Below, in pieces: positions 8,770 to 24,478 of a stretch of DNA of 64,000 bases. The translations under genes and the position numbers were made by a program. The notes beneath the pieces were generated by a model. It had not been told where the DNA came from, did no database searches, and saw only the letters and a list, made by a program, of their open reading frames with translations. The stretch lies in IMG/VR virus record IMGVR_UViG_3300009370_000003; one strand, written 5' to 3'. Within the stretch, counting starts at the first letter, position 1; each line of letters begins with the position of its first letter. The DNA is from a virus.

Positions 8770-9051
8770 CTACTCTTGGAAAAAAGTTTTATGCTGTAGA
8801 CGGTCAAGTTTCTCGTCAATCTTCTGAATTGAAGATAAAACTCTCTCAAAATCAGCCTCAATTTGTTCTCTTGTTGCGTAGTCTCTTGCTATCTCTTCAC
8901 GAGTTTTATTGACAAGAATGTCTAATCTTTTTTGTTCTGATAATACATTACGAATCAAAAACCCAAGAGGGAGAATGATTATAGTCATTATAAGATTCCA
9001 TAAGATGTATGGTGATATCGTGATTTCCATATGGTTATTTATGGAATTCAC
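8770..9051 (-). CDS. Hypothetical protein with one TM helix and a coiled coil
   Basis: Hydrophobic ILWNLIMTIIILPLGFLI followed by an amphipathic helical tail. Confidence 0.6.
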   Translation of the reverse strand: MNSINNHMEITISPYILWNLIMTIIILPLGFLIRNVLSEQKRLDILVNKTREEIARDYATREQIEADFERVLSSIQKIDEKLDRLQHKTFFQE

Positions 9052-9734
9052 TTCGTCAGTTCGCCGTCTTCTCCTATTTCAAACCTGTCCCAAGCTGTAT
9101 CAATTTCTAAAGGTTCTGACCTTCCTCCAGTCAAATATCGGGTATCTGTATTAAATGCAACACTATATCTATCCTTATTGGTTGGATTAGGTTCTACCAT
9201 ATGCATCATAGCACTAGGGAACATAAGAAGGGTTCCTGATATTGGTCGAACTTCATGTGATTCACGCTGTCTCATGTTATGTGGGAAGTCTGAAACAACT
9301 TTTGGGTCTGTATTAATTGCAACAAAATTTCCTTCGTCACCTTCAGCATGAATATATAATGCACCACTATACCAACAACCGTTATGCAAATGTGGTTTAT
9401 TCCACGCAAGGTGGTCATTAATATTAGCCCAAACATTACCAATAGTTACCTGAACTTTACTTAAATCAATACCATGAAATCGAACAATATCTTGGTTCAA
9501 TTTATCTTTCATGACTCTCAACATTTTATTCCATATTGGTCTCCGCTCAACCCCGTCATTAGATTGCCAGCCCGTATATGCGTTAGATATTCTCCGTCCT
9601 ACGGGGTCTTTGGCTCTCATGCTATCCATATCTGCTTTCAGTTGTTGCAGATATGTCTCCGTCACTAAACCTTCTTCAAGTAAGTTATACTCAAACAAAA
9701 AGGTAGGAAATAATAATCTAACTGCCATAATCAA
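9048..9734 (-). CDS. 2OG-Fe(II) oxygenase (TIGR02466-like)
   Basis: LFPT N-terminus, WANIN...NKPHLH...SGALY, LMFPSAMMHMV...RYSVAFN. Confidence 0.85.
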   Translation of the reverse strand: MIMAVRLLFPTFLFEYNLLEEGLVTETYLQQLKADMDSMRAKDPVGRRISNAYTGWQSNDGVERRPIWNKMLRVMKDKLNQDIVRFHGIDLSKVQVTIGNVWANINDHLAWNKPHLHNGCWYSGALYIHAEGDEGNFVAINTDPKVVSDFPHNMRQRESHEVRPISGTLLMFPSAMMHMVEPNPTNKDRYSVAFNTDTRYLTGGRSEPLEIDTAWDRFEIGEDGELTK

Positions 9735-10669
9735 TCTCTGTCTATATTTTCGTTAGACTCCGCACCGTCCCAGTTTAAATCTGTTTGACTTCTTTGCTTC
9801 TCAACGAAATCCATCTCTAACTGATTTTCGTCCTTTTCATGCATAGGACATTCAGGTGGAGGTGATTCTCCTTCTTTCATATGCTGAAAGAATTTACTTT
9901 TTGGATTCCATATCTTAGCCTGTCTATATCCACCAATATTTAATCGAGAGTTCGGAAGTCCAGTTTCTTCGTCCACTAACTTTAAATCTCTTTGCCATTT
10001 TTGCATCGAATTCTCTGCTATTGCATGTTCATTAAACCAAGTCTCGGACTCCCCATAGAAGTATGTCGATGCCCATTCTTCTCTTTTAAAAGGTACTACC
10101 TGTAGTATAGGAGTTCCAGTTGGAATTATGAACGAGTAATCTACCCTAGGATAGAATATGATTTGTCCGTTATCTACGCCAACATTAAATTTATCGGTAT
10201 CGATAACCCCTTGCCATACTGCAAAGTATTTATTCTGAAATAAAAACGGGTCTATAAACAAAACAGAATAGCCCGGCGGAGTTGTCATATTCCAATGAGA
10301 AGATATTTTAAATGCATCTTTAACTGGTGAATCATCAATATATTGAATAGTATCTGCAAGTTGTGCCGAAGGGTGTGATTGTGATACTTCTGTTATACCT
10401 TCTTCGACTTGCATTTCCTGACTACCGTCTGGCCAATTCCAATCTACTCCGTTTCTTACTGGAATATCCTTAGTGCAAACAATGTAATAACCCATTGTTA
10501 ACCAGTCTTGCATTGCTGGACAAGACCTAATAGTTTGAGTCAATCTACCTCTATGGTCAATTCTGACTTTCATCTTCTTCCACCATTCTGGCTGATAGTC
10601 TCTAGCTGCTATTGGTCTAAAGCTTGCATAAGACTCTTCGTCATAAGTTCTAAATTCAATCGTTGGCAT
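9731..10669 (-). CDS. Conserved phage hypothetical protein (DUF6065-like), commonly found beside 2OG oxygenases
   Basis: PEWWK, TIRSCPAMQD..TMGY, TPPGYSVLF..P, GVIDTD and GTPILQVVPFKREEW motifs. Confidence 0.6.
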   Translation of the reverse strand: MPTIEFRTYDEESYASFRPIAARDYQPEWWKKMKVRIDHRGRLTQTIRSCPAMQDWLTMGYYIVCTKDIPVRNGVDWNWPDGSQEMQVEEGITEVSQSHPSAQLADTIQYIDDSPVKDAFKISSHWNMTTPPGYSVLFIDPFLFQNKYFAVWQGVIDTDKFNVGVDNGQIIFYPRVDYSFIIPTGTPILQVVPFKREEWASTYFYGESETWFNEHAIAENSMQKWQRDLKLVDEETGLPNSRLNIGGYRQAKIWNPKSKFFQHMKEGESPPPECPMHEKDENQLEMDFVEKQRSQTDLNWDGAESNENIDRD

Positions 10670-11381
10670 ATCTTCTTTTCTCGTCTAATACTGCAATCTC
10701 ATCTCCTCGTAATACGATTGACCGTCTGTCTAAGTATTTAGCTTTTTTATGAGGTGCCTCTGCACCGTGTGGTATTCTTCCGTCAAACATTAATAATCTA
10801 TTTGGAACAAAATCAACAGAACCAATTTCAAGGCGATCCATTTCTTTTAAAATCCCCATAGGAATAGTATCTTTATAAAATCTTAATCTTCCACCAAAAT
10901 TTGGGTTCCAAAAACTATTTGAGTAGTATAAAAAAGAAAGGCTCCATTCATCTTCTTGAGAAGCATCTGAATGACATGTTCCATGTTGTCCATGTGTTTG
11001 AGAATTGCCACCCATATATTGAAACCTAACCCAATCAAAACCAAAATCAGTTCGGATTTTTCTATCTAACCACCTCATTAAAGGTTTATTTGGATTGTCT
11101 CCAGCTGGAGTGAAGTCTATCCCAGCAAAATAAGAACAACCCCATAATTGGTGATTTGGTAAACCACCTCTATTAGGAATGTTACCGTTTACTTGATTAT
11201 TTTTAGACCAAGCAGTTCTTCTGTGTAATTCATCATCTACATTTTTCCACAATGAAGTTTCTAGATAATTATCTAGAACATAAACATTGTTCTCTAATGG
11301 AAAACTGTCCTGAATATAGAAAGGCTCGTCTATAAAATGGACATTGATATTATCCAGCGTCATTTGGTTGTAACCCACCAC
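10656..11381 (-). CDS. 2OG-Fe(II) oxygenase (prolyl-hydroxylase-like)
   Basis: HxD (CHSD), W..NFGG.L.F, PNRLLMFDGRIPHGA and the distal R typical of the double-stranded beta-helix fold. Confidence 0.85.
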   Translation of the reverse strand: MVGYNQMTLDNINVHFIDEPFYIQDSFPLENNVYVLDNYLETSLWKNVDDELHRRTAWSKNNQVNGNIPNRGGLPNHQLWGCSYFAGIDFTPAGDNPNKPLMRWLDRKIRTDFGFDWVRFQYMGGNSQTHGQHGTCHSDASQEDEWSLSFLYYSNSFWNPNFGGRLRFYKDTIPMGILKEMDRLEIGSVDFVPNRLLMFDGRIPHGAEAPHKKAKYLDRRSIVLRGDEIAVLDEKRRYAND

Positions 11382-11928
11382 TGCTTCTCAAATGAGAAGG
11401 TGGAGGCAGCTGCATTAAGTATTCCTCTAAAGGTTTAAGAGTATCTTCTCTTGTTATCGATATCTCTCTGAATACTTCTTCAGCAACACAAGCCAATGCG
11501 TCTGTATATTCCAAAACCCTTCGGGCATTTGATCTGTGTGGATGCGCTGACCCTTCACGAGCAGCAATAGAAACTTCTACTATATCATCAAAACCATACT
11601 GTTCGACTTGTTGATAAGTGTTTCTTCTAACCCCTTCTGCAACTCGACCAGCATATTGTTGATTTAAACTAACCCCACTTGGTGGTTCAGAATTTTCAAT
11701 ATAAGCTTCGATTGCGTCCTTTTCATTTTCAGATAAAGGAAGTTTTGCTTGTTCGTCAAGCTCTTTACCGTCTTCCCATTCTTCAACTTTGCATTCAATA
11801 TCATCATATATTATAACTTGATAGTCAAATCCTAAGTCAGGAGCGTCAACACTTTCATGTCTCCACTCTAATCCATTTGGTTTTCTTATAAAAAGATTTC
11901 CGTTTTCGCAGTAAACTAATGCATTCAT
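11350..11928 (-). CDS. Hypothetical protein (possible fibre assembly chaperone)
   Basis: Acidic 192-aa ORF in the operon. The helical C-terminus (YGFDDI..V...LEEYLMQLP) loosely resembles tail-fibre assembly proteins. Confidence 0.45.
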   Translation of the reverse strand: MNALVYCENGNLFIRKPNGLEWRHESVDAPDLGFDYQVIIYDDIECKVEEWEDGKELDEQAKLPLSENEKDAIEAYIENSEPPSGVSLNQQYAGRVAEGVRRNTYQQVEQYGFDDIVEVSIAAREGSAHPHRSNARRVLEYTDALACVAEEVFREISITREDTLKPLEEYLMQLPPPSHLRSSGGLQPNDAG

Positions 11929-11938
11929 ATTAACTCCA

Positions 11939-13567
11939 TTATACCTTTAACATTCTTTTATATGTTTCATATACTTCTAACATATTTATGTGTTCACAAT
12001 CCATGCCTTTTATCCATGGGCCACCTCTTGTATAGTGAACTGCATGGTGACTATTTAACATGGTTTTTTCATATCCTTCGGTTGCAATTTTATCATGTGG
12101 TATCTTACTAATTTGATTAGTCCATTCAAACTGGTGTAAAAACTGACCACTTGCAGTATTAACTACTTCGGGTGTTAATTTCCTACAATCTTCATGACCA
12201 TTATTAAATATCATCATACTAGACCACAATTTTTTAGGATATGAAACATTCTTTTCTCCACCCATTTTTGTCTCGTCATGCTCTTTAAAATCATATTGAA
12301 CACATGCAATAGCATGATCAGGGTCTAAGAAATAAAATAAAGACATAGGTGAATATTTCCATATGTAGTCATCGTCTATAAAGAAACTAAATCCTTCATA
12401 GTTTTCTAAATATGGAATTAAGAATCTACTGTAAGTAAACTCTGTCGATTGATTTGCGTAGTCCCTATTATATTCGGGAATTTGGCTTATGTCAAGTTTC
12501 TTAACTTCTACTTTGTAATCATTAAAAAACTCTTGGCCATCGCCACCGCTTCTACATTTATCTATTGAATCGTGTATAGAATTCTCTGCAATTTTAAATA
12601 TATCACTATGAGAAGAATCATAGCCAAGATAGATATTAACTGGTTTCTTTTTACATAATTTAGTTACTTTTTTATTAAAATCATAAACATAATCTCTAAA
12701 ATTTAACCCACCAACATTACTAGGAGACCATTCAATCTTACCGTCTCTAGTGTATATAGCTGTGAGTGAGTCTCCCTTTACTGTGTCTTTCCAATAATCT
12801 AAGATATCATCTAAAGTCATTGAGTCAATGTTAGGAAATAAATTTGTATAATCTGTAACTAAAATAGGAAGTTCAGGTATGTCTATTGTTTCAAATACCT
12901 TTGAACGAATCGAGCCGGGATGAATGCTTATCTTAGGTATAATATCGTGCTCTTCTCCATCGGCCCCAAGGTATTTACCACCAGCTGCAGTATGTCCTTG
13001 TATGCATTGCCAGAGACCTTCTTTTTGTATATTATTAATCAACCAGTGTGCTTTTGCAGCGTGATAATATTGTGCTTGTAATGCATTTTCTTCGTCTATA
13101 TTTAACTTATTACAATCAGGGTGGTCACTAACAGTTGATAACCATTGATACTCATCATCTGTATTTTTAAAATCCATAGAACCACCTTTTACAGGGTGGT
13201 CGGGTCTAGGTTCTTGAGAATATCCTAAATGAAGGTATCTATGATATTGTAATGAATTATGATGCAACTGTTGATATCCCATCAACTTCCCAGCATCTAT
13301 TAATTTTTTAACTTCTGACCATGGAACCATTCGTATCGGAGGTTGTTGTGAGACAACATACTCCATTATCTTATAAGTTTCTGTCTCTTTATACTTGCCC
13401 GGCAGAACGGGTGCATCGTGGGGATTAATAAAACTTATAGAACCTAAGTTAAATTCCTGAACCTCACCGCGTGACGGAGACCCGTGAGAATTTTTTACCT
13501 CATCGAGGTCTCTACGGAATGTGAATTTGCGGGCTTCCTCAAGTGTTTCTATCTTCACCATAGTCAT
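11939..13567 (-). CDS. Fusion of an unknown N-terminal domain and a GT-A glycosyltransferase
   Basis: C-terminal domain has IYLGYDS, STEFTYSRFLIPYL, FIDDD (DxD), YPKKLWSSMMIFN, FLHQFEW and HYTRGGPW. Confidence 0.85.
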   Translation of the reverse strand: MTMVKIETLEEARKFTFRRDLDEVKNSHGSPSRGEVQEFNLGSISFINPHDAPVLPGKYKETETYKIMEYVVSQQPPIRMVPWSEVKKLIDAGKLMGYQQLHHNSLQYHRYLHLGYSQEPRPDHPVKGGSMDFKNTDDEYQWLSTVSDHPDCNKLNIDEENALQAQYYHAAKAHWLINNIQKEGLWQCIQGHTAAGGKYLGADGEEHDIIPKISIHPGSIRSKVFETIDIPELPILVTDYTNLFPNIDSMTLDDILDYWKDTVKGDSLTAIYTRDGKIEWSPSNVGGLNFRDYVYDFNKKVTKLCKKKPVNIYLGYDSSHSDIFKIAENSIHDSIDKCRSGGDGQEFFNDYKVEVKKLDISQIPEYNRDYANQSTEFTYSRFLIPYLENYEGFSFFIDDDYIWKYSPMSLFYFLDPDHAIACVQYDFKEHDETKMGGEKNVSYPKKLWSSMMIFNNGHEDCRKLTPEVVNTASGQFLHQFEWTNQISKIPHDKIATEGYEKTMLNSHHAVHYTRGGPWIKGMDCEHINMLEVYETYKRMLKV

Positions 13568-13588: not shown

Positions 13589-14515
13589 TTAAGAGGTAAT
13601 CGGAGTCGCAGGCCACTGTTGTTGTAATACGCCATCCCATCTTGGAACTGGTGTTCGACCAGCCCTTTGATAAGTGAATGGACTTCTATGATCATATGTT
13701 GTAGGAGTTTGACCTTGTCTAGCATAGGTAAACGGAGACCTATAATTATAAGTGAACGGGGTTTGTCCAGTTCTCTGATAAGTAAACGGAGACCTATGTT
13801 GATATGTATCAGGAGTTTGTCCAGTTCTCTGATAAGTAAATGGACTCCTATGGTCATAGGTATAAGGTGACCTATGGTCATATATTACTGGTTGTCTTGA
13901 ATCTCTAATATTAGGTTCTTGAATGTTCCTGATATTAGGTTCTTGTTGGTTCCTGATATTAGGTTCTTGTTGATTTCTAATGTTAGGTTCTTGAGCTGAC
14001 CTAATGTTAGGTTCTTGTGCATTAGAAGGACTTTGAGCATTCTTAATAGTCGGTTGTTGAGCAGACTTAATCGTAGGTTGTTGTGCCGCAACTGGATTCC
14101 TATAGGTAAACGGTGACCTATATTGATAAGTATTCGGCTGTCTTGCCGCATTTTGATAAGTAAACGGCGACCTATGGTTATAGGTAAACGGTGACCTATG
14201 GTTATATGTGCCTGGCGACCTCCAAGTGTAGGTAAACGGCGACCTATGGTTATAGGTAAACGGTGACCTATGTTGATAAATGGTCGGTTGTCTTGCTTGT
14301 GCGATAAATGGTTGTCTCGCAGGTGCTTGATAAGTGGTCGGTTGCCTTGCCTGTGCAATAAAAGGTTGTCTCGCAGGTGCTTGATAAGTGGTCGGTTGCC
14401 TTGCCTGTGCAATAAATGGTTGTCTCGCAGGTGCTTGGTATATTACAGGCTGCCGTGCCTGTGCAATAAACGGCTGTCTTGCGTTTCCGATAAATGGTGA
14501 TTGATAAAAAGGCAT
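13589..14515 (-). CDS. Proline-punctuated repeat protein A (308 aa), mirror partner of protein B
   Basis: 34 units of 6, 8 or 10 aa over aa 7-288, including PFIAQARQ, PTTYQAPARQ, PFTYNHRS, PNIRNQQE and PFTYQRTGQT. Confidence 0.85.
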   Translation of the reverse strand: MPFYQSPFIGNARQPFIAQARQPVIYQAPARQPFIAQARQPTTYQAPARQPFIAQARQPTTYQAPARQPFIAQARQPTIYQHRSPFTYNHRSPFTYTWRSPGTYNHRSPFTYNHRSPFTYQNAARQPNTYQYRSPFTYRNPVAAQQPTIKSAQQPTIKNAQSPSNAQEPNIRSAQEPNIRNQQEPNIRNQQEPNIRNIQEPNIRDSRQPVIYDHRSPYTYDHRSPFTYQRTGQTPDTYQHRSPFTYQRTGQTPFTYNYRSPFTYARQGQTPTTYDHRSPFTYQRAGRTPVPRWDGVLQQQWPATPITS

Positions 14516-15405
14516 TATTCTTTCTCCCCGCCTGGCGGTTGTCCACTATAATATAGTGGAATCCTTGCTTGATAAGTAAACGGGTTCTGTGCATTATGCG
14601 TAAACGGACTTTGTTTACTCGCAGAATAGGTAAACGGGTTCTGTGCATTATGTGTAAACGGATTCTGTCTATTTGCTGGATAGGTAAATGGATTCTGTGC
14701 ATTATGCGTAAACGGATTCTGTCTATTTGCTGGATAAGTAAACGGGTTCTGTGCATTATGTGTAAACGGATTCTGTCTATTTCTACTATTCGGTTCCTGT
14801 CCTGACCTAATGTTAGGTTCCTGTCCTGACCTAATGTTAGGTTCTTGGAAATTCCTAATGACAGGTTGCTGACTTGACCTAATGTTAGGTTCTTGAGCAT
14901 TCGCTGGATAAGTAAACGGAGTCTGACTTGACCTAATGTTAGGTTCCTGTGCATTTACAGGATTTCTATATGTAAATGGAGACCTGTGATTGTAAGTAAA
15001 TGGAGACCTGTGATTGTAAGTAAACGGGTTCCTATATGTGAACGGAGACCTATGGTCATAAGTAAACGGCGACCTGTGATTGTAAGTTAAAGGACTTCTG
15101 TGGTTATAAGTAGTAGGACTTCTGTGGTCGTAAGTATACGGTGACCTATGGTCGTAAGTAAACGGACTTTGTTTACTCCTACTATTCGGTTGTTGAATAT
15201 TTCTTATGTTTGGTTCTTGAGCATTCGCAATATAAGGATAGGGATTTTGTCTATCCCTTATATTAGGTTCCTGTGCAGCTGCAATATAAGGATACGGTTG
15301 TTGTGCATTTCTTATATTAGGTTCTTGACCATTCGCGATATAAGGATAAGCATTTTGCCTATTTCTTATATTAGGTTCTTGAGCTGTTGCAATATATGGA
15401 TAAGG
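13652..15405 (-). repeat. Coding tandem repeats with 18/24/30-bp units and 54-bp higher-order units
   Basis: Visible near-identical DNA units such as gtaaacggtgacctatggttatag, attaggttcttg... and aaacgggttctgtgcattatg. Confidence 0.9.
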
Positions 15406-15570
15406 GTTTTGAACTGCTTCTTGCCCAGACGCATCATTCCATGTCGCCGGGCCGGTTTTTGCATATATTTGATCAACAGCCTTCCAAGTAGACGCACCTG
15501 TCTTTACCCAAGCACCTTGAGTTGCGTTCCAACCTGTAGGGGTCTTAACCTTCTGATTACCTGATGCCAT
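14515..15570 (-). CDS. Proline-punctuated repeat protein B (351 aa)
   Basis: N-terminal (V/A)KTxxxW beta repeats, then 34 units over aa 56-337. TAATG overlap with protein A. Confidence 0.85.
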   Translation of the reverse strand: MASGNQKVKTPTGWNATQGAWVKTGASTWKAVDQIYAKTGPATWNDASGQEAVQNPYPYIATAQEPNIRNRQNAYPYIANGQEPNIRNAQQPYPYIAAAQEPNIRDRQNPYPYIANAQEPNIRNIQQPNSRSKQSPFTYDHRSPYTYDHRSPTTYNHRSPLTYNHRSPFTYDHRSPFTYRNPFTYNHRSPFTYNHRSPFTYRNPVNAQEPNIRSSQTPFTYPANAQEPNIRSSQQPVIRNFQEPNIRSGQEPNIRSGQEPNSRNRQNPFTHNAQNPFTYPANRQNPFTHNAQNPFTYPANRQNPFTHNAQNPFTYSASKQSPFTHNAQNPFTYQARIPLYYSGQPPGGEKE

Positions 15571-15593
15571 TTATCCTCACCTACTCTTAACTA

Positions 15594-17216
15594 TTAAGAG
15601 TATAAAATCCACAAGTCACCAACGGCCCCATCTCCTCCTGTAGGTGCTGAAGTTGACTGATACACATTTCTTGCTGTCCCACCACTATTTGTGGCATTTG
15701 TTATTGTCACCGCACCAACCGACAATGGAGCTACAGAAATAGTTAAACCTCCTGTTGAAGCACCCGTGTCTGTTGTGGTTCCTAATATGAAACTATCTGC
15801 AGATTCGTCCCAACCCATAAATCCGTTATTACCTGTTGACCCTCTTTCAAGAATCAAACCAAGGTCATTAGAGTTAGAACCTGTATTACCTGAACCAAGT
15901 TCGATTAATGCATCTTCAATAGTAGTATTAGTTGCACTATTAGTAACGGTTGCACCATTAACTGTTAAATTTCCTGATACTATGACATCATCAAATGTTA
16001 CATCGTCTGATGTGCCAACTGCCTGTCCGATACTGAACTGGCCACCTGAATAGGTAACACCTGTTCCAGCACTTAAATGTGCTCTTACTTCTGCAGCACT
16101 CGGGCCTGTATATGTGAATACACCTGTTGAATTATTATATGCAAGTGAACCATCTCCACCAGCATCTGTGACTGATACATCTGCTCTTACTAAAGCTTCT
16201 GTGTATTGTGTTATTGTAGTTGCAAGTGTTAAAGTTCCCGCTGCATCATCATATGTTGCTGTTATTCCTGTTCCAGCAGTTACCAAAGCAGCGACTCTAT
16301 CGTCTACTCTTTCTGATGTATGGTAAAGGTTACTTGAACCTTCTGATAATGCATCTGTGTCTGCAAGAACAGTTCCACCTAATGAAGTTGCAGAACCAGC
16401 GATTGTTATACTTGAATTTGAAAGTTTTGAATTTGAGATAGAACCTGCCAACATGGCATCTGTTATACCTAATGCTTTAACTCGAACTGCATCTGAACTT
16501 AATTCTACTGAACTTCCGTCTACACCTACTGCAAGAACACCACTTGACGCTGCAAGTCCGTTTCCTGCTATTGCTGTAACTACATCTGCTATTGCTTCTT
16601 TCTTACTTGAGTTATCTGTTGCATCTACTATTGCAAAACTGTCAGCTGCAACATCTACTGTAGCTGCTGTTAATTCGTTTAAGTCTAGTGCTAATGATAC
16701 TGCACCACTTGTTCCACCACCTGATAAACCGTCACCTGCTGTGACTCCTGTTAAATCTGCAGTTGTGGATAAAACACCATTTGTTGCAGTTATGTTTGTA
16801 CCTGCCATTGCTGTAGCAAGGTCTGCGATTGATTCTTTTCTCGAACCGTTACTGTCGTTTGCATCAATAATTGCAATACTATCGTTTGCAACATCTACTG
16901 AAGCTGCTGTTAATTCACTTAAGTCTAATGCAAGTGTGGCATCACCTGATGTCGCACCACCTGAAAGACCGTCTCCAGCAACAACACTTGATATGTCACC
17001 TGTTTCTGCATCTCTTGTGATTGTTAGGGTTCCGGCTCCATCATTATATGATAATGATATACCCGAACCAGCTGTCATTAAAGTGTTTACTTGGTCATCG
17101 ATTGCTTCTAATGCAGCGGTTCCAAATGCAGCTGCAGTTAAGTCTCCTGAACTGTCAATTACTTCGGTTGCACCTACATTCAGCCCGTTTTTTATTCTAA
17201 AATTCTGCGCTGCCAT
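15594..17216 (-). CDS. Tail fibre / stalk-like structural protein
   Basis: G/T/A/S/D-rich, with a duplicated AGDGLSGG..SG...LALDL.ELTAA.VDVA.DS.AI.DA block and a C-terminal STSAPTGGDGAVGDLWILYS. Confidence 0.75.
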   Translation of the reverse strand: MAAQNFRIKNGLNVGATEVIDSSGDLTAAAFGTAALEAIDDQVNTLMTAGSGISLSYNDGAGTLTITRDAETGDISSVVAGDGLSGGATSGDATLALDLSELTAASVDVANDSIAIIDANDSNGSRKESIADLATAMAGTNITATNGVLSTTADLTGVTAGDGLSGGGTSGAVSLALDLNELTAATVDVAADSFAIVDATDNSSKKEAIADVVTAIAGNGLAASSGVLAVGVDGSSVELSSDAVRVKALGITDAMLAGSISNSKLSNSSITIAGSATSLGGTVLADTDALSEGSSNLYHTSERVDDRVAALVTAGTGITATYDDAAGTLTLATTITQYTEALVRADVSVTDAGGDGSLAYNNSTGVFTYTGPSAAEVRAHLSAGTGVTYSGGQFSIGQAVGTSDDVTFDDVIVSGNLTVNGATVTNSATNTTIEDALIELGSGNTGSNSNDLGLILERGSTGNNGFMGWDESADSFILGTTTDTGASTGGLTISVAPLSVGAVTITNATNSGGTARNVYQSTSAPTGGDGAVGDLWILYS

Positions 17217-17449
17217 TAAAAGGTTCCTCCGTCAATAGTAGCACCCCGAATGGTCTTCGCCTCTGATGCATCCGCTAGATGGGTGTCAACTCTAGTAGTC
17301 GTGAAGTAAAGTTTAGTAGAACCTTCTGATATGTCATCAGTATCCAAGGTAGAGACGGCAGAAGATACTACCTTCCCACTTGCATTGATGACTTCGGTTG
17401 ATCCACTATTATATCCATACTCTGATCTGAAATTTTTTGTGTCTGCCAT
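17216..17449 (-). CDS. Small fibre adaptor-like protein
   Basis: N-terminal KNFR motif, TDDISEGSTKLYFT motif (also seen in the 540-aa neighbour) and C-terminal IDGGTF. Confidence 0.6.
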   Translation of the reverse strand: MADTKNFRSEYGYNSGSTEVINASGKVVSSAVSTLDTDDISEGSTKLYFTTTRVDTHLADASEAKTIRGATIDGGTF

Positions 17450-17495
17450 TTTTAGTGTGTCCCTAAATTATGTTTCATTTAGTTGATTATAAGAT

Positions 17496-17503
17496 TATTT
17501 ATA
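17496..17503 (-). promoter_or_regulatory. Late promoter TATAAATA
   Basis: Exact consensus just downstream of a terminator. Would drive 17449 through the repeat genes. Confidence 0.75.
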
Positions 17504-17521
17504 GGAATGGACTCCCTAAGT

Positions 17522-17550
17522 AAAAAGAAAAAGGGCCCGTAGGCCCTTTT
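17522..17550 (-). terminator. Rho-independent terminator
   Basis: Minus strand reads AAAAGGGCC-TACG-GGCCCTTTTTCTTTTT. Confidence 0.85.
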
Positions 17551-17569
17551 AATTTAGATTATTTTAAAC

Positions 17570-17980
17570 TTATGCATCTATTAGCGTTCTTTCAAACTTA
17601 ATTGTAGTTGAGTTTGCAGAAGCGGGTGTGCATTTGAGTCTAACATCTGAACCACTGATGTCTGCATCAAAGGTCGCAAGTGCTGTATCTAACAGTGTCC
17701 CATATGAAGTCAATGTGACTGTAGTTCCGTCATGAACTAACATAATTTCCGTAGAATGGAAATTAGTTCCTTCTGACATTGCAACGATATACCGTGCAGC
17801 TCTAAAGCTTGCATGTGCAAAAGTGTCAAGATTAAACTGTGATGTAGAAGTTTTGCTTGTAGCAGCCTTCTTACTGTTTTTATCATGCATTTTTTTGCTG
17901 GTTTCGATTACATCGTCTGTAGAATTATAAGTCAAATGACGGACAAGTTCTGCAAGTTTAAATGCGTTTGTTATAGCCAT
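17570..17980 (-). CDS. Virion structural protein (beta domain shared with the C-terminus of 17992..18816)
   Basis: RAARYIV...HSTEIMLVHDG....SYG...FDADISGSDVRL.CTPA aligns with KAIKYVI...HAAEVLLINDG....QYG...SSDISGGNMRLLVTPA. Confidence 0.65.
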   Translation of the reverse strand: MAITNAFKLAELVRHLTYNSTDDVIETSKKMHDKNSKKAATSKTSTSQFNLDTFAHASFRAARYIVAMSEGTNFHSTEIMLVHDGTTVTLTSYGTLLDTALATFDADISGSDVRLKCTPASANSTTIKFERTLIDA

Positions 17981-17991
17981 ATCTTATCCTC

Positions 17992-18816
17992 CTACGAATG
18001 TCTTATTTGGAATGTGTCAATCGTTGTATTAGTGTTTGCTGGAGTCACGAGAAGTCTCATGTTTCCACCACTAATGTCACTACTTAAAGTGAACAACGAT
18101 GCGGTTGAAAATATATCTCCGTATTGAACGAAGTGTGCATTCGAACCGTCATTGATTAAAAGAACTTCTGCAGCGTGTGTGCCCGCAGAAGCATGAGTCG
18201 CGTTAATTACATACTTAATTGCTTTATTAGCAACTGCATTTGCAGATAACACTTGGTCGGCCGTTGTAGCAGCAAAGGAGCCTGCAGTATAATAACCTTG
18301 GACTAAGTCCGCAGCAGTTACACATACAATCTCGACAACATCTCCTGATATTGCGTTAGCAGCTAAAGTAACGGTGGTAGTGTTTGTAGCCGTATAGTCT
18401 GTTCCAGCATCAACAAGTTTTACACCATTTAAGTATACTTGTTCAGACCCTACTGTGTAGGATAAAGAAGCTCCGTCATCATCGTTTCCAGTGATGGCAG
18501 TAGTATTACTTGTAATTGTGTATTTAAATATTGATATGCCTGAACCACCAATGTCTCCAAAAGACAAGGTTCCTGAACCATTCGTCTTCATAACCTGACC
18601 GTTGGTTCCGTCACTCGTAGGAAATGTTATAGCATCATTGATTGTTAGAGAAGCTGGATTAGAACCGATTTCTGAAATTGCAGCTGACCCATCATTTTTT
18701 TCGGTATACATTCTACCATGATAGGTGTTTATTGCAATTTCCCCTAGAGCTAAATCACTCGTTGCTGGGACATCGTTCTGTGTCGAACTCCTTTTAAATT
18801 TGATCTCTGTTGCCAT
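17992..18816 (-). CDS. Tail fibre-like protein with an Mtd_N-like N-terminus
   Basis: IKFKRSS...LALGEIAIN, FPTSDGTNGQVMKTNGSGTLSF and VYLNGVKL. Confidence 0.7.
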   Translation of the reverse strand: MATEIKFKRSSTQNDVPATSDLALGEIAINTYHGRMYTEKNDGSAAISEIGSNPASLTINDAITFPTSDGTNGQVMKTNGSGTLSFGDIGGSGISIFKYTITSNTTAITGNDDDGASLSYTVGSEQVYLNGVKLVDAGTDYTATNTTTVTLAANAISGDVVEIVCVTAADLVQGYYTAGSFAATTADQVLSANAVANKAIKYVINATHASAGTHAAEVLLINDGSNAHFVQYGDIFSTASLFTLSSDISGGNMRLLVTPANTNTTIDTFQIRHS

Positions 18817-18845
18817 TGGTATCTCCTCCTAGATTAGATTATGGA

Positions 18846-20282
18846 TTAAAATGTTCCACCATCTATTCCAGTTATAGTGACAGCACCCGAAGTAACCGTG
18901 AAGTTAGCACTTGCAAATGAGGCTATACCTTTATTTGCAGTTGTTGCGTCTTCTCCAGCGATTGTGATACTTCCGTCTGCATTTGTCACATCGATACCTT
19001 CACCAGCAGTTAGGGTTGCAGCTGCAAAGTCATTATTTGTTCCATGACCTATAAGCAACTGACCTGCTGTTGGAGCAGACCCGTCTACGCTTGTGATTGA
19101 ACCTGAAAGTGCAAGACCACTTGCCTCAACTCCACCGAAGACAGCATTTAATGCTGTTCCTGAGAATGTTGAAGAAGAGTCAGTTGCAAGTCCTAATGCA
19201 ACAAACTTTTGAGTTGAATCATCATATCCGAAGAATCCGACTCTAGCAGAACCGTCATTGTATTTAAATTTAATACCACGGTCTAAGTTATCGTCTGAAC
19301 TATCGGCACCAATTTCGAATACTGGGTCAGCAATAGAAACAGTAGTAGAGTTAACTGTAGTAGTTGTTCCACTAACTGTCAAGTTTCCAGCAATAGTCAC
19401 ATTATCGGGTAAACCGATTGTAACTGTATTACCTGAGGCAGCAGTTGTCACCTCGTTTGCTGTTCCAGCAAATACCATTGTTTCTGAATCTAAGTCGATA
19501 GATAACGCACCACCTGTATCAGCTTGGAAATCCAAGTCTGAACCAGTTAATTGTGTGTCTACATAGTCCTTAACAGCTGCAGAAGTAGGTAAAGTAGTAT
19601 CGTTATCGTTACCCGCAATACCTTCTGATTCTAAAACTAGAACTGCATCAGCGATTTTATCTAGTGTGACAGCATCAGCTGCTATCATACTATTTTCTAC
19701 TGCAGTTGCAGCAATCGTTAATGCACCAGTTGACGCAATAGTTGCATCTCCTGATATGGTTTTGTTATCCCAACTGTTAGACCCATCATAGATTAGCACC
19801 TGTCCTGACGCTGCGCCAGAGATGCTAGTGTCGGTTGCACCCGCCACCGTTGATGTTGTTGATGCGAAACTTAAGTTTCCACTACCGTCAGTCTGTATGA
19901 CTTGGGTATTAGTTCCATCTGAACTTGGTAAAGTCCATGTGATACTTGAACCTAATGCATTTGCAGCCTTAAGACCAACAAAGTTAGAACCGTTATCGGT
20001 ATCTTCCATTAGTTTCAGTGTTCCACCTGTGGAAGCACTATTACCGACTAAGAAGTCGGCAGGAGTTGCACTTGAACCAGCAAGCATATCCGTATAATAC
20101 TTACCACCAATCGCTTGGATTAATGGTGTAGTGTTATTAGAATCTACTGACTCAATGTAAAGTTTTGCCCCAGCACCACTATTCGATCTATCTTGCACAT
20201 ATGCCAATTCACCTTCAGCAAGATCACTTACCGTTGGCGCACTGACTCCTGTGCTTCGTTTGATTTGAATTACTGTTGACAT
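18846..20282 (-). CDS. Tail fibre-like protein
   Basis: IQIKRSTG...[46 protein letters not shown] and C-terminal IDGGTF. Confidence 0.75.
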
Positions 20283-20428
20283 TTTTTATTCCTCCTAGGA
20301 ATATTTTATCGTTATAGTTAAATTTTCGTTTCACTATCCACGAAAGATACATTATAAAACTGTCCACTCACAATGTGGGTCGTGACTCACTGGAATGTCA
20401 CCTTGATTTGATATAAGTATTTAGACAA

Positions 20429-20836
20429 TCAGAATCGTCTATAGGGTATAATTGGAATATAAATTCCTAGTCCAATTCCTTCATTTTGTATAACTGGGTA
20501 TATTGATACCACTTGAAGAGCTCTTAGTGTGAATTGTCTTTCTCTTTGGTTCAGTCTCTTGTCTAGCATGTTGTAGATCATATAATTCATTCCCAATTTT
20601 ATAGCAATTACTTCCCCTTTCTTTGGGTGAGTTCCAACTAATTGATTTGTTTCGTAATAGGGACAGTGTGGATTTCGGTCTTGACATTCGATTAATGCGA
20701 AAGTCTGCATTACATCAATAGTCTGTAAAGTTATAAAAGATTTGTAGAGACGCTGGTCTTGAGTCGACCAATCGTCTAGGGCAGCGTTACATGTACCAGC
20801 AGCGGTTAATAGTAAGAATGTAATTAACCACTTCAT
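20429..20836 (-). CDS. Hypothetical exported or membrane protein
   Basis: Signal peptide-like MKWLITFLLLTAAGTCNA. Confidence 0.6.
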   Translation of the reverse strand: MKWLITFLLLTAAGTCNAALDDWSTQDQRLYKSFITLQTIDVMQTFALIECQDRNPHCPYYETNQLVGTHPKKGEVIAIKLGMNYMIYNMLDKRLNQRERQFTLRALQVVSIYPVIQNEGIGLGIYIPIIPYRRF

Positions 20837-20843
20837 TCATATT

Positions 20844-21062
20844 TTAGAATGTTCCACCGTCAAGTACAGTTTTTGTCACCCACTTATCTGTCGCTTGATC
20901 GTAAGAGAGTAGACCGTTATCTGTTTCTGTAGCATTAACATCTAACAATTCATTGATTGATTTACTACTTAAATCTGTAGTTAAAGTTCCGCTGTTTCCA
21001 ATCGCAACCTGTTTTGCTCTGATTTGATTTCCTTGTAGAACTCTTGCTTTAATACTTGCCAT
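20844..21062 (-). CDS. Small structural adaptor protein
   Basis: INELLDV....NGLLSYD..TDKW and C-terminal LDGGTF. Confidence 0.6.
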   Translation of the reverse strand: MASIKARVLQGNQIRAKQVAIGNSGTLTTDLSSKSINELLDVNATETDNGLLSYDQATDKWVTKTVLDGGTF

Positions 21063-21064
21063 AA

Positions 21065-21397
21065 TTACCTCGTTACGCCTGGCGTTAAGATTGCTTGTCC
21101 TTCAACAACCCTAGTTGTTTCTGAAGCAGCACTTGTTATATTTAGGTCATAGACATACCTACCCGCCTCTAAAGCAGTTGTTTGAGTATCCGTAAGTGAC
21201 ATTTTCACTTTACCCGTCGCAGCTGTTATAACGCATGTAAAGGTTGCAGATATAGAAGTAGACCCATAAGTCTTTCTTATTTGGGCAGCTGCAGTGTATC
21301 CAGTGAGGTCTAAAACTTCTCCTGCGACATCTGTGCAGTCTACTTCAATAGAATAATCTGTTCCTTGGTCGATATAAAGATTTGCTATGATTGCCAT
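21065..21397 (-). CDS. Virion structural protein (BppU-N-like Ig fold)
   Basis: NLYIDQGTDY, LDLTGYTAAAQIRK, GRYVYDL, RVVEG....TPGVT; this pattern is common in marine T4-like phages. Confidence 0.75.
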   Translation of the reverse strand: MAIIANLYIDQGTDYSIEVDCTDVAGEVLDLTGYTAAAQIRKTYGSTSISATFTCVITAATGKVKMSLTDTQTTALEAGRYVYDLNITSAASETTRVVEGQAILTPGVTR

Positions 21398-21414
21398 ACA
21401 ACTATTTATCTATT

Positions 21415-23250
21415 TTATGATTTAGAATACTGTGCAGTAGGAACTTCTTGGTGTATTTTAGCTACAGCCTGTGTGCTGGGGTTGTGAACATAAACCTGTT
21501 TTACCTTAGTTGCCGTTGACTGCCCACTCTCATTAACAAATACACCTTTCACTTTTGCAAGAGGGCCAATTGGTCTTGTAGTTGAATAAGGCGTTTGATA
21601 TGGAAACGGTGACCTATGGTCATAGTTAAGTTGATATTGATGCTGGTAAGTAGTCGGTTGCCTATGTTGTGCCTGAAATGGTTGTTGAGCATTTACTGGG
21701 TGACCATATGTAAACGGAGACCTATATTGATAAGTATTCGGTTGTCTTGCTTGTGCAGTATATGGATAGGTTTGTTGTGTGTCCCTACTATTTTGTGCGT
21801 CTGAAATAAACGGACTTTGATAAGTAAACGGACTTTGAACTTGGTATATAATCGGAGTTTGACCTGTCCTTTGATAAGTAAACGGACTTCTATGGTCGTA
21901 AGTATTCGGTTGTCTTGCTTGTCCTTGGTAAGTGCCCGGCTGTCTCGCATTTGCAATATATGGATACGGTTGTCTTGCAACTCCAATATACGGTGATCTA
22001 TGGTCATAAGTATAAGGACTTCTATGGTCGTAAGTAGTAGGACTTCTGTGGTCGTAAGTATACGGTGACCTATGGTCATATATTACTGGTTGTCTTGAAT
22101 CTCTAATATTAGGTTCTTGAATATTTCTTATGTTTGGCTCTTGACCTTGTGCTATCACCTGATTCGTAAAAGGTTGAAATGCAATATATGGTGTATCACT
22201 TTGTGCTACTGACGGGTTCGCAGCTTGTGTTGGTTGATTTGTAACTTGGAATATATAAGGTGACTGCAATGGTGGCACGCCCGGCTCTCCGTCTGGAATC
22301 GGAGTCCGACCTATTGCTGGCCCACTATATTGGAAGGTGTAAGGAGTTTGAACCTGATACGCATTTTGATATTGTGCTTGATAAAATCCACCTTGTGCAG
22401 TGCTTGGAGCTCGGGATGGTACATTCCTAGTTCTTATGTTAGGTTCTTGATTGGACATAACATAACTCTCTTCCACCAACTCACCTCCACCCCAGCCCGG
22501 CCCAGTCCAACCACCAAAAGGTATATAGGCTGGGTTAGTCTGATAAGTAAATGGACTTCTATATTGATATGGTTGTTGAACAATAGACGGAGTTTGAATA
22601 TTTACTGGACTCGGTTGCTGAGCAGTGTAAGGAAATGGACTTCTATATTGGTAAGTATAAGGACTTCTATGATCGTAAGTAAATGGACTCTGTTTACTTC
22701 TTTGATTAGGTTCTTGAATGTTCCTGATATTAGGTTCTTGTTGGTTCCTGATATTAGGTTGTTGAATATCTCTTATGTTTGGCTCTTGTAAATTACTATT
22801 CGGAATAGCTAATTGACCTGTTCTTTGATAGGTAAATGGAGTCTGACTAATCGCAGGAAATGTAAATGGAGTCTGACTATTTCTTATATTAGGTTCTCGG
22901 CCAGTTGCAATATAAGGATAGGGCTGTTGTTTGTTCTTAGCATTATTTTCTTGTGCGCTTACAGGTTGTCTACTTTGATATTCAGTCGGGTGTTGATATA
23001 TAACTGGTGTTCGACCTGTTCTTTGATAGGTAAATGGAGTCTGACTATTTCTTATATTAGGTTCTCGACCCTGAACTATGTTTTGATATGTAAACGGTGA
23101 TTGTTCTGCATTCGTAAATGGATTTTGCCTATTTGCAATAGTTGGCACAGCTTTCTGTCGAGAGACAGGTTGCTGTCCTTGTGCAATTACTTGTCCTTGG
23201 TAAGGTTGTTGAAACTCCGACCCAGTGTTTATATAGATATCGTCAGCCAT
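21415..23250 (-). CDS. Proline-punctuated repeat protein C (611 aa), internally palindromic
   Basis: Same repeat vocabulary as A and B. Arms at aa 16-204 and 372-559 flank a less regular centre. Confidence 0.85.
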   Translation of the reverse strand: MADDIYINTGSEFQQPYQGQVIAQGQQPVSRQKAVPTIANRQNPFTNAEQSPFTYQNIVQGREPNIRNSQTPFTYQRTGRTPVIYQHPTEYQSRQPVSAQENNAKNKQQPYPYIATGREPNIRNSQTPFTFPAISQTPFTYQRTGQLAIPNSNLQEPNIRDIQQPNIRNQQEPNIRNIQEPNQRSKQSPFTYDHRSPYTYQYRSPFPYTAQQPSPVNIQTPSIVQQPYQYRSPFTYQTNPAYIPFGGWTGPGWGGGELVEESYVMSNQEPNIRTRNVPSRAPSTAQGGFYQAQYQNAYQVQTPYTFQYSGPAIGRTPIPDGEPGVPPLQSPYIFQVTNQPTQAANPSVAQSDTPYIAFQPFTNQVIAQGQEPNIRNIQEPNIRDSRQPVIYDHRSPYTYDHRSPTTYDHRSPYTYDHRSPYIGVARQPYPYIANARQPGTYQGQARQPNTYDHRSPFTYQRTGQTPIIYQVQSPFTYQSPFISDAQNSRDTQQTYPYTAQARQPNTYQYRSPFTYGHPVNAQQPFQAQHRQPTTYQHQYQLNYDHRSPFPYQTPYSTTRPIGPLAKVKGVFVNESGQSTATKVKQVYVHNPSTQAVAKIHQEVPTAQYSKS

Positions 23251-23251
23251 A

Positions 23252-24478
23252 TCATACTACAAACCATAAGTGACCTACAGCTGAAGAACCAACTGAGCCT
23301 GGCGCAGTAGATACTATCTCATAATCAAGTTCAACATTTCCACTATTGATTTCTATCCCCTTTGAAGTGTTTACAACGAAATCTAATTGACCATTCGGGT
23401 CATCATAAGTTACAGTGATACCAGTTTCGGTATTGCCTGAAACCATACCTCCAACGATGTCTTCTATTTCTTCTTGAGTCTTCTGAGCAACTCCAGTAAA
23501 ACTAAAACTATTTGCATTATCATCATATGATATTGAAATATTAGTGTGAGTTCCAGCCGAGAATGCATCATTCAATGCGTCTTGTGCATTTTCATTTGTA
23601 TAAGTTGCAGCTGCATCATCATTTTCCCACTTACTGGTTGTCGAATTATAAACTAAAACTTGACCATTCGCAGGGCTAGAGGTTGTGACATCACTCAAAC
23701 CACCAACCGAATGACCTGATATAGAATTTGTTGTTGATGAAGTTGTTGCATTACCAACAAAGTTTGTTGAAGTTATAGAACTAAATCCTGTTCCTACACC
23801 ACCTGTAATAGTTGCTGTTCCATCAGTAAGTGTTGGTGCAGTTAATGTTTTACCTGAAGCAAGTGTCATATTGTCTTCTACAAAAACATTACCATTTGCT
23901 AACTGGATTGTATAACCCGACTCTAGTAAGACTGTTCTTCCTGTACTAGACCCATTTAAAATAACTCCATCAGTGTTAACATTATAAATTGTATTTGCAG
24001 CTGTTTCTACAAAGTGACCTCCAGCAGCTCCTCCAACACCACCAGCATCTCCTAGGACTGAACCAGTGAATGCATAAACTGTAAGAATATCATTTACTGC
24101 AGCTGCATTTTGTAAAGTTATTTTAGTCCATTTACCAGCAACTGCTGTGGCTGGGTTGTAATCTGTTCCTTCTACTAAATGTTTTGAAGTTCCAGCCGAA
24201 TGGTCATTTAAGAATACCTGATATCTGCCCGGCATAAGTTCTAAGGTATTAAGATTTGAATCTTCACCAGTGAAATCTGTCTGTCCAGCAGTTGCTACAT
24301 ATTCAAATGTTTGGAAGTAAAAAGTCTTAGCTTCTAATTCATTAATTGCATCTACTAGATTATTATCGTTAGATATACTTCCCGCAAGTCCAGCAATAGT
24401 TCCGACATCATTTGCGAGGTCGTTATGAGTGCTTCTAAACTCTTCTATAGTTTGATTTCTGTCTACTGTTCTAGCCAT
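23252..24478 (-). CDS. Fibre / stalk-like structural protein
   Basis: N-terminal TIEEFR..HN, YVATAGQTDF, repeated E..QD.....GT.T.I..SYDD units and C-terminal STAPGSVGSSAVGHLWFVV. Confidence 0.7.
   Translation of the reverse strand: MARTVDRNQTIEEFRSTHNDLANDVGTIAGLAGSISNDNNLVDAINELEAKTFYFQTFEYVATAGQTDFTGEDSNLNTLELMPGRYQVFLNDHSAGTSKHLVEGTDYNPATAVAGKWTKITLQNAAAVNDILTVYAFTGSVLGDAGGVGGAAGGHFVETAANTIYNVNTDGVILNGSSTGRTVLLESGYTIQLANGNVFVEDNMTLASGKTLTAPTLTDGTATITGGVGTGFSSITSTNFVGNATTSSTTNSISGHSVGGLSDVTTSSPANGQVLVYNSTTSKWENDDAAATYTNENAQDALNDAFSAGTHTNISISYDDNANSFSFTGVAQKTQEEIEDIVGGMVSGNTETGITVTYDDPNGQLDFVVNTSKGIEINSGNVELDYEIVSTAPGSVGSSAVGHLWFVV

Follow-up and report, generated by a model that had tools for sequence, protein, structure and literature searches.

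A mirrored residue-level pairing code in two repeat systems of a T4-like myophage, consistent with a two-stranded antiparallel β-ribbon

Genes A, B and C and Their Mirror Register

The IMG/VR virus record IMGVR_UViG_3300009370_000003 was analysed as one stretch of 64,000 nucleotides, referred to below as the window, and this text deals with three of its genes, A, B and C, all on the minus strand, whose proteins carry proline-punctuated repeats in mirror order. Gene B (14515..15570) encodes 351 amino acids (aa), having a three-fold Trp-containing head (aa 1-54), a putative ribbon strand (14557..15408, aa 55-338) and a short tip. Gene A (13589..14515, 308 aa), whose start lies in the stop codon of gene B, bears the complementary strand (13652..14503, aa 5-288), followed by a conserved Trp-containing C-terminal tail that would return to the B head. 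Meanwhile, gene C (21415..23250) encodes a single-chain hairpin of 611 aa, with an outgoing arm (22639..23205, aa 16-204), a centre or tip region (22138..22638, aa 205-371) and a returning arm (21574..22137, aa 372-559). The original prediction had proposed one pairing code of peptide words for both hairpin systems over the span 13652-23205, which reaches from A residue 288 to C residue 16.

When B and A are aligned antiparallel by their prolines alone, the match is gapless over 283 residues, with the proline positions of A and B adding up to 345 for 36 of the 42 A prolines and a score of 99.6 against 33 ± 3.5 for unit shuffles. The strands face each other at i+j=343, a line two residues off this Pro-Pro line, where the residue before Pro faces the residue before Pro. 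Gene C folds back on itself at i+j=576/577, with arms of 189 and 188 residues and a single one-residue bulge; in its centre, a nested hairpin following the learned code described below was not detected (best score 12 against 12.7 ± 2.2 for shuffles). No inverted DNA repeats occur between the arms, nor do A and B have any exact block of at least 26 base pairs (bp) in common, and thus the mirror exists only at the protein level. Regarding the classes of facing units, which were defined after inspection of the data, so that the held-out tests weigh more, 30 of 34 match in B/A (null 13.4, maximum 25 in 20000 same-length shuffles) and 9 of 11 in C (null 5.4, p=0.004).

From Pairing Words to a Residue-Level Code

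All word pairings listed in the original prediction are present in the window, with small deviations only. Every PNIRxxQx unit of the arms (18/18) faces a TY-x-[HYW]-RS unit, one further PNIR unit in the C centre having no partner; the five PYPY ten-residue units all face PFTYQR[TA]G[QR]x, one of these carrying A instead of T; and PFTY[RQ]x (4/4), PFTHNAQN (4/4) and PFTYPANRQN (2/2) stand opposite the partners that had been assigned to them. The polarity switch was also recovered, as NIR-type units sit on B, then on A, then on B. Three specific pairs had been put forward as common to A/B and C, and they do occur in both, except that one of three PNIR[SN]SQT units faces PNTYDHRS. As evidence for a shared code these pairs are weak, since two of them lie on exact DNA of 47-59 bp shared by C and A or B; these two copied pairs are absent from the other 39 systems, and the third was matched exactly in none of six homologous cases.

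The shared DNA in C comprises a segment at 22031..22122, which carries the two copied pairs and is identical to A over 59 bp (22064-22122) and to B over 47 bp (22031-22077), and another 56 bp identical to A at 22705..22760, both on the minus strand. These blocks are missing from C of the closest relative (L001), and they are recent copies, not convergence. Across 22031-22760, both C arms have been remodelled with A-like and B-like DNA relative to L001 yet are still complementary, a concerted exchange of modules between loci.

The modular alphabet that had been proposed stands as a complementary code, whereas its rules operate at the level of residues, the words being a by-product. Pro faces Gln or Arg in 1833 of 1917 cases and Glu faces Ser in 208 of 210; Thr stands opposite Asn, Ser or Asp, Phe opposite Ala or Gly, Tyr opposite Arg, Ala or Val, and His opposite Asn, with Ser-Glu/Gln also among the preferred pairs. 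Prolines are spaced by an even number of residues in 6706 of 6710 intervals, and both ribbon strands are of like composition, with 12-14% proline and much Gln and Asn. In homologues, leaving aside the window and its closest relative, the NIR rule taken literally is obeyed by 182 of 242 units (81 expected) and the six-residue rule by 67 of 173 (27 expected), but the PYPY rule by no more than 8 of 143; at class level, across 41 non-redundant systems, PYPY units stand opposite their partner in 154 of 158 cases. The remaining literal words are specific to the lineage of the window. The code is degenerate, with about seven cognate classes.

That this code is common to both hairpin systems was borne out family-wide, and not by the specific pairs. 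The pair log-odds learned separately from B/A and from C correlate at r=0.89 for the Pro face and 0.81 for the other face, Pro pairs being left out. Applied to the 26 C loci, the matrix trained on B/A recovers the correct register in 19 and there outscores each of 300 same-length shuffles. Of the other seven, one lies on the borderline, and the Pro-only alignment had misplaced six; rescanning of four of these yielded a single, clear long register. When neither the window nor its closest relative was part of the training, the matrix scores B against A at 396, compared with 109 for the next register, 80 for B:B, 119 for A:A and 15 for a parallel control, and the C hairpin at 100 + 93.

Mirror and Code across Relatives

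Matching stretches were found in viral contigs (236 and 75) and in metagenomes (434), the scans giving 92 distinct B/A pairs and 26 distinct C loci; gene C is split in two genes in 16 of the latter. The pairing code is conserved in over 100 relatives. The mirror is gapless in 75 of the 92 B/A pairs (a count that takes in a partial match and a pair whose B is frameshifted), with 41 different lengths from 223 to 533 aa. About ten of the remaining 17 pairs were misregistered by the Pro-only method, and those run with the residue matrix show a single long register.

A contingency table of facing unit types, which had been suggested as a check on the prediction, gave 978 cognate units of 1158 in 41 non-redundant systems, compared with 501 ± 14 after shuffling of same-length units inside each system; partner identity in homologues is thus far from random. 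Of 357 NIR-type eight-residue units, 354 stand opposite the TY-x-HR type and none opposite its own type. In addition, the own partner ranks first in both directions in 24 of 24 non-redundant B/A pairs, foreign partners reaching about half the score; between B and the C strands encoded by the same genome there is no fit. Unit orders differ so widely between lineages that inheritance of one ancestral order fails as an explanation.

Seven natural single-chain B-A fusions, built of other words (L136:2746-4305, L138, L141, L144-L147), show one long register under the same matrix, and the mirror is intact in a locus with swapped gene order, A before B (L234:4995-6790), from a phage-like contig binned in a metagenome-assembled genome of Sphingobacteriales. 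As both arrangements mirror, two separate chains would suffice and read-through is not needed. Three matches were assigned to bacterial genomes, but seem to be phage contigs within metagenome bins. Distant members with other words, having PAPY-type units, were also seen (P0015, L105:1477-2334).

Coupling, Geometry and Compensation

Coupling analysis around facing prolines gives a single lateral diagonal, strong on both faces (a+b=-2), flanked by a +2 diagonal for the face without Pro and by a -2 diagonal for the Pro face; the C loci, taken by themselves, agree with this. A second interface line was not found within 6-8 residues. In hairpin peptides, a 2-9 type (-2) diagonal marks the face that is not hydrogen-bonded, where Pro is tolerable. 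A lateral line with opposite diagonals on the two faces, and a period of two with Pro on one face, is the pattern of an antiparallel β-ribbon; the opposite offsets would follow from geometry. Diagonal contacts arise from the right-handed twist of β-sheets (PMC9268152). Taken together, the sequence data agree with an antiparallel β-ribbon of two strands, twisted and capped at its edges. Fold predictions are of low confidence, with a predicted local distance difference test (pLDDT) score of 35 for AlphaFold2 on C alone and of 41 for artificial read-through B-A tip hairpins, using an 18-row alignment of in-frame homologues.

Regarding compensation, changes in B and A coincide at the partner among 33 disjoint pairs of related genomes (stratified odds ratio 5.4), with an odds ratio of 4.9 for the +2 diagonal and of 0.8-2.9 for other offsets. 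Since isolated substitutions are mostly tolerated, compensation operates chiefly through blocks and through length, and the pairing code must count as degenerate. For the matched insertions, the likeliest route would be slippage or copying, leading to a tolerated bulge and then to a selected matching change, in addition to recombination at mirrored sites.

Heads, Tips and Genomic Setting

Upstream of B lies a fibre-like stalk gene (15594..17216, minus strand; PHROG 697 structural protein) with a C-terminal ST..P..GDLW motif, which is found upstream of B in 73 of 73 loci; the fibre-like stalk gene upstream of C (23252..24478, minus strand) ends in a related GHLW motif. The B head is formed by three Trp-containing repeats, and the stalk protein encoded upstream is its likely docking partner. 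Similar triple repeats end other proteins, as in P0025 and P0031, two unrelated proteins of 207-208 aa, which hints at a wider family of small fibre-docking modules.

The far end of B is a short tail in 49 of the 92 pairs, a Hint-like domain in 32 and another domain in 11. In the homologues of the Hint-like class, a run of Gly precedes a Hint/intein-like domain that terminates in His-Asn, at the predicted ribbon tip near the A N-terminus (for example, L016:8121-9812 and L004:10001-11413), and a similar end is seen on one C1 protein (L082/L061, L235). Such a tip could possibly act by self-cleavage, or by ligation to A or to a small molecule.

Behind A, a five-gene cassette (9048..13567, minus strand) encodes a glycosyltransferase fusion, a possible fibre chaperone and 2OG-Fe(II) oxygenases, and a glycosyltransferase/oxygenase cassette follows A in 72 of 72 loci. 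Nothing in cultured phages matches the first 300 aa of the glycosyltransferase fusion. The cassette might hydroxylate prolines of the ribbons or glycosylate them, its link to the ribbons being putative. The hypothetical protein at 11350-11928 has Caudo_TAP_N (0.86) and DUF4376 (0.82) as its nearest named Atlas clusters, both being families of tail-fibre assembly and leads only, and may be the fibre chaperone.

The window represents the late structural region of a T4-like myophage, with sheath, terminase, neck, baseplate gp8 and a DUF4815 protein, the sheath protein being nearest to those of Pelagibacter phage Mosig (51%) and HTVC008M. Near-identical DNA is present in marine metagenomes, and the same sequence was recovered in independent assemblies; one RNA sequencing run contained 5% of the words and carries no evidence on expression. 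A, B and C sit between the DUF4815/gp8 genes and the T4 neck protein gene. In pelagimyophages, a variable host recognition cluster with fibres and glycosyltransferases lies between a VrlC-like gene and neck gp14 (PMC7029224), and the position of A, B and C corresponds to this cluster of pelagimyophage-like T4-like phages. A small gene with a signal-peptide-like start (20429-20836) also lies inside the fibre cluster, and some related contigs appear to skip it, although the joints are weak.

A, B and C belong to no family in Pfam, PHROG or NCBIfam and have no sequence match in the PDB. They are absent from cultured phages, where the sole match was a low-complexity Enterococcus phage hit, with none for the C start. 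The Cementoin label of Atlas neighbours (28% of members) was rejected as a low-complexity match; these neighbours are otherwise unnamed viral clusters.

Proposed Structure and Alternatives

The reading put forward here, on the observed mirror order, residue code, sharing between loci, co-variation and gene context, is that B with A, and the C arms with each other, form long two-stranded antiparallel β-ribbons in a thin extension of the tail fibre, to which a probability of about 75% is given. The chains would zip into a twisted ribbon whose register is held by cross-strand side-chain complementarity. All prolines would lie on one face, at positions whose NH points outward, so that both edges are capped and sheet growth is stopped. 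On this Pro face, Pro would stand opposite Gln or Arg, and Thr or Ile opposite Asn, Ser, Asp or Gln; on the other face, size and cation-π matching would apply (Phe-Ala/Gly, Tyr-Arg/Ala/Val, His-Asn and Ser-Glu/Gln). The words of 6, 8 and 10 residues would be combinations satisfying these residue rules, their non-periodic order fixing one register. A small head made from both chain ends would dock on the end of the stalk protein encoded upstream, while the far end would carry an exchangeable tip, be it a short peptide, a Hint domain or some other domain, giving a very thin fibre extension for host search, with the variable tip far from the baseplate. If fully extended at 3.3 Å per residue, the length would be up to ~95 nm for B/A and up to ~60 nm for C, and coiling would shorten it.

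The code is established at the level of sequence, and a physical duplex is likely. The fuller proposal, of a protein duplex of separate chains that recognise each other across hundreds of residues by an orthogonal, writable antiparallel code, in which fibre length and tips are tuned by matched rearrangement of both genes, is given slightly less than an even chance.

Four points weigh against the ribbon as proposed. The genes are known from no cultured phage, their place in the virion being presumed from their context; the geometry derives from co-variation in repeats that are related and hence not sampled independently; most isolated substitutions lack compensation, the partner having changed in 26 of 164 cases against 19 expected (32 for the diagonal); and six or seven B/A pairs keep a mismatch of 1-88 residues, mostly whole repeats. 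The pairs with one strand longer by 1-88 residues are L002, L007, L022, L041, L169, L175 and L230, and they may be bulged intermediates or assembly errors with collapsed repeats.

The same code could also serve a higher-order assembly, in which three hairpins or A/B pairs form a six-stranded needle like the T4 gp37 tip, or three ribbons are bundled through their aromatic faces. In favour are a stalk that is presumably trimeric, the many aromatic residues of the coded face, and the example of the T4 needle, a trimer in which the chains interweave, running outward and then turning back (PMC9603124), but the coupling analysis shows one lateral diagonal only, same-parity prolines every 6-10 residues would break the second hydrogen-bonded edge of a closed barrel, and three Trp repeats in one head chain are what a monomer seated on a trimer would have (compare gp38, PMC6851490), so this arrangement is considered unlikely. 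Antiparallel pairing of another kind, such as a polyproline II helix against an extended chain, would suit the proline, Gln and Asn content, and a known antiparallel fibre built of two unlike repeat tracts exists in the stalk of antigen I/II (PMC3178794); however, the strict period of two instead of three, the one-to-one residue register and the opposite diagonals on the two faces make it very unlikely.

Even less probable is that the strands pair outside the virion, as a scaffold for the neighbouring modifying enzymes or as a host-surface protein. The constant cassette behind A would agree with such a role, whereas the coupling to stalk genes in the late structural region and tip domains that vary like receptor-binding parts speak for a fibre. 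Finally, the mirror might reflect no physical pairing, being inherited or produced by a DNA mechanism (inverted duplication or gene conversion) or by assembly, as C shares exact DNA blocks with A or B and repeats are prone to misassembly. This is hardly tenable, because the arms lack inverted repeats and A/B a shared exact block of 26 bp or more, unit orders and lengths differ by lineage yet always mirror, independent assemblies agree, and the ranking of own partners and the coincident changes in B and A largely refute it.

Significance and Comparison with Known Systems

If true, the β-ribbon would be a protein assembly analogous to a nucleic-acid duplex, with complementarity readable from sequence and kept between B and A through insertions, deletions, fusions, splits and a swap of gene order. 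For an abundant group of uncultured marine phages, it points to a new fibre architecture, and it poses a puzzle of co-evolution, as to how the lengths of two repeat arrays shift together. With natural cross-strand pairs available by the thousand, register and partner choice in antiparallel β-sheets become testable with short peptides, and the pairs perhaps offer a design set for β-zippers resisting aggregation; programmability for nanostructure design, as first suggested, would be a further possibility.

No published description of the mirrored ribbon, family or solved structure was found, in a search that reached few subscription journals. The nearest systems each differ in defining features. 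The T4 gp37 needle (D10-D11) is likewise a thin distal part of a fibre, with both termini at the base and a receptor-binding tip (PMC9603124), and a hairpin course, out and back with both ends at the base, is indicated by the register for C and the natural B-A fusions. However, the needle is a homotrimer of 20 nm and fixed length, whereas the ribbons have 190-530 residues per strand, often from two genes, are punctuated by Pro and are rearranged in length and order in mirror; no sequence or profile similarity to the gp37 C-terminal domains was detected (Pfam, PHROG, NCBIfam, PDB). The gp38 adhesin of T-even phages (S16; PDB 6F45) caps a trimeric fibre as one chain via three Trp (PMC6851490), an analogy for the docking step only, because it consists of a helical bundle and a polyglycine sandwich with no ribbon; neither gp38-family similarity nor a polyglycine sandwich was found for B, with a template modelling (TM) score of 0.19 for the Atlas model.

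Outside phages, the streptococcal antigen I/II stalk is also formed by two pairing repeat tracts (A and P repeats) in a long stalk with a variable head (PMC3178794), but there an α-helix packs against a polyproline helix, with one tract type per arm in one chain, while both strands of the ribbons use one alphabet and a like composition, with polarity switches along the strand and a period of two. Articulins and alveolins (epiplastins) have Pro-punctuated low-complexity tracts and predicted very long β-strands (PMC6212826). These are Val/Glu/Lys-rich proteins of the eukaryotic membrane skeleton with a VPV motif, and no mirror code is given in PMC6212826; VPV modules, Val/Ile-rich acid-base tracts and any Pfam match are all lacking in A, B and C. 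Regarding the pairing itself, designed β-hairpin peptides of the YKL type show lateral and diagonal cross-strand pairs, including cation-π pairs (PMC9268152), similar to those proposed here. Those peptides are twelve-residue models, whereas in the putative ribbons such pairs are maintained by natural selection across hundreds of residues and between two genes.

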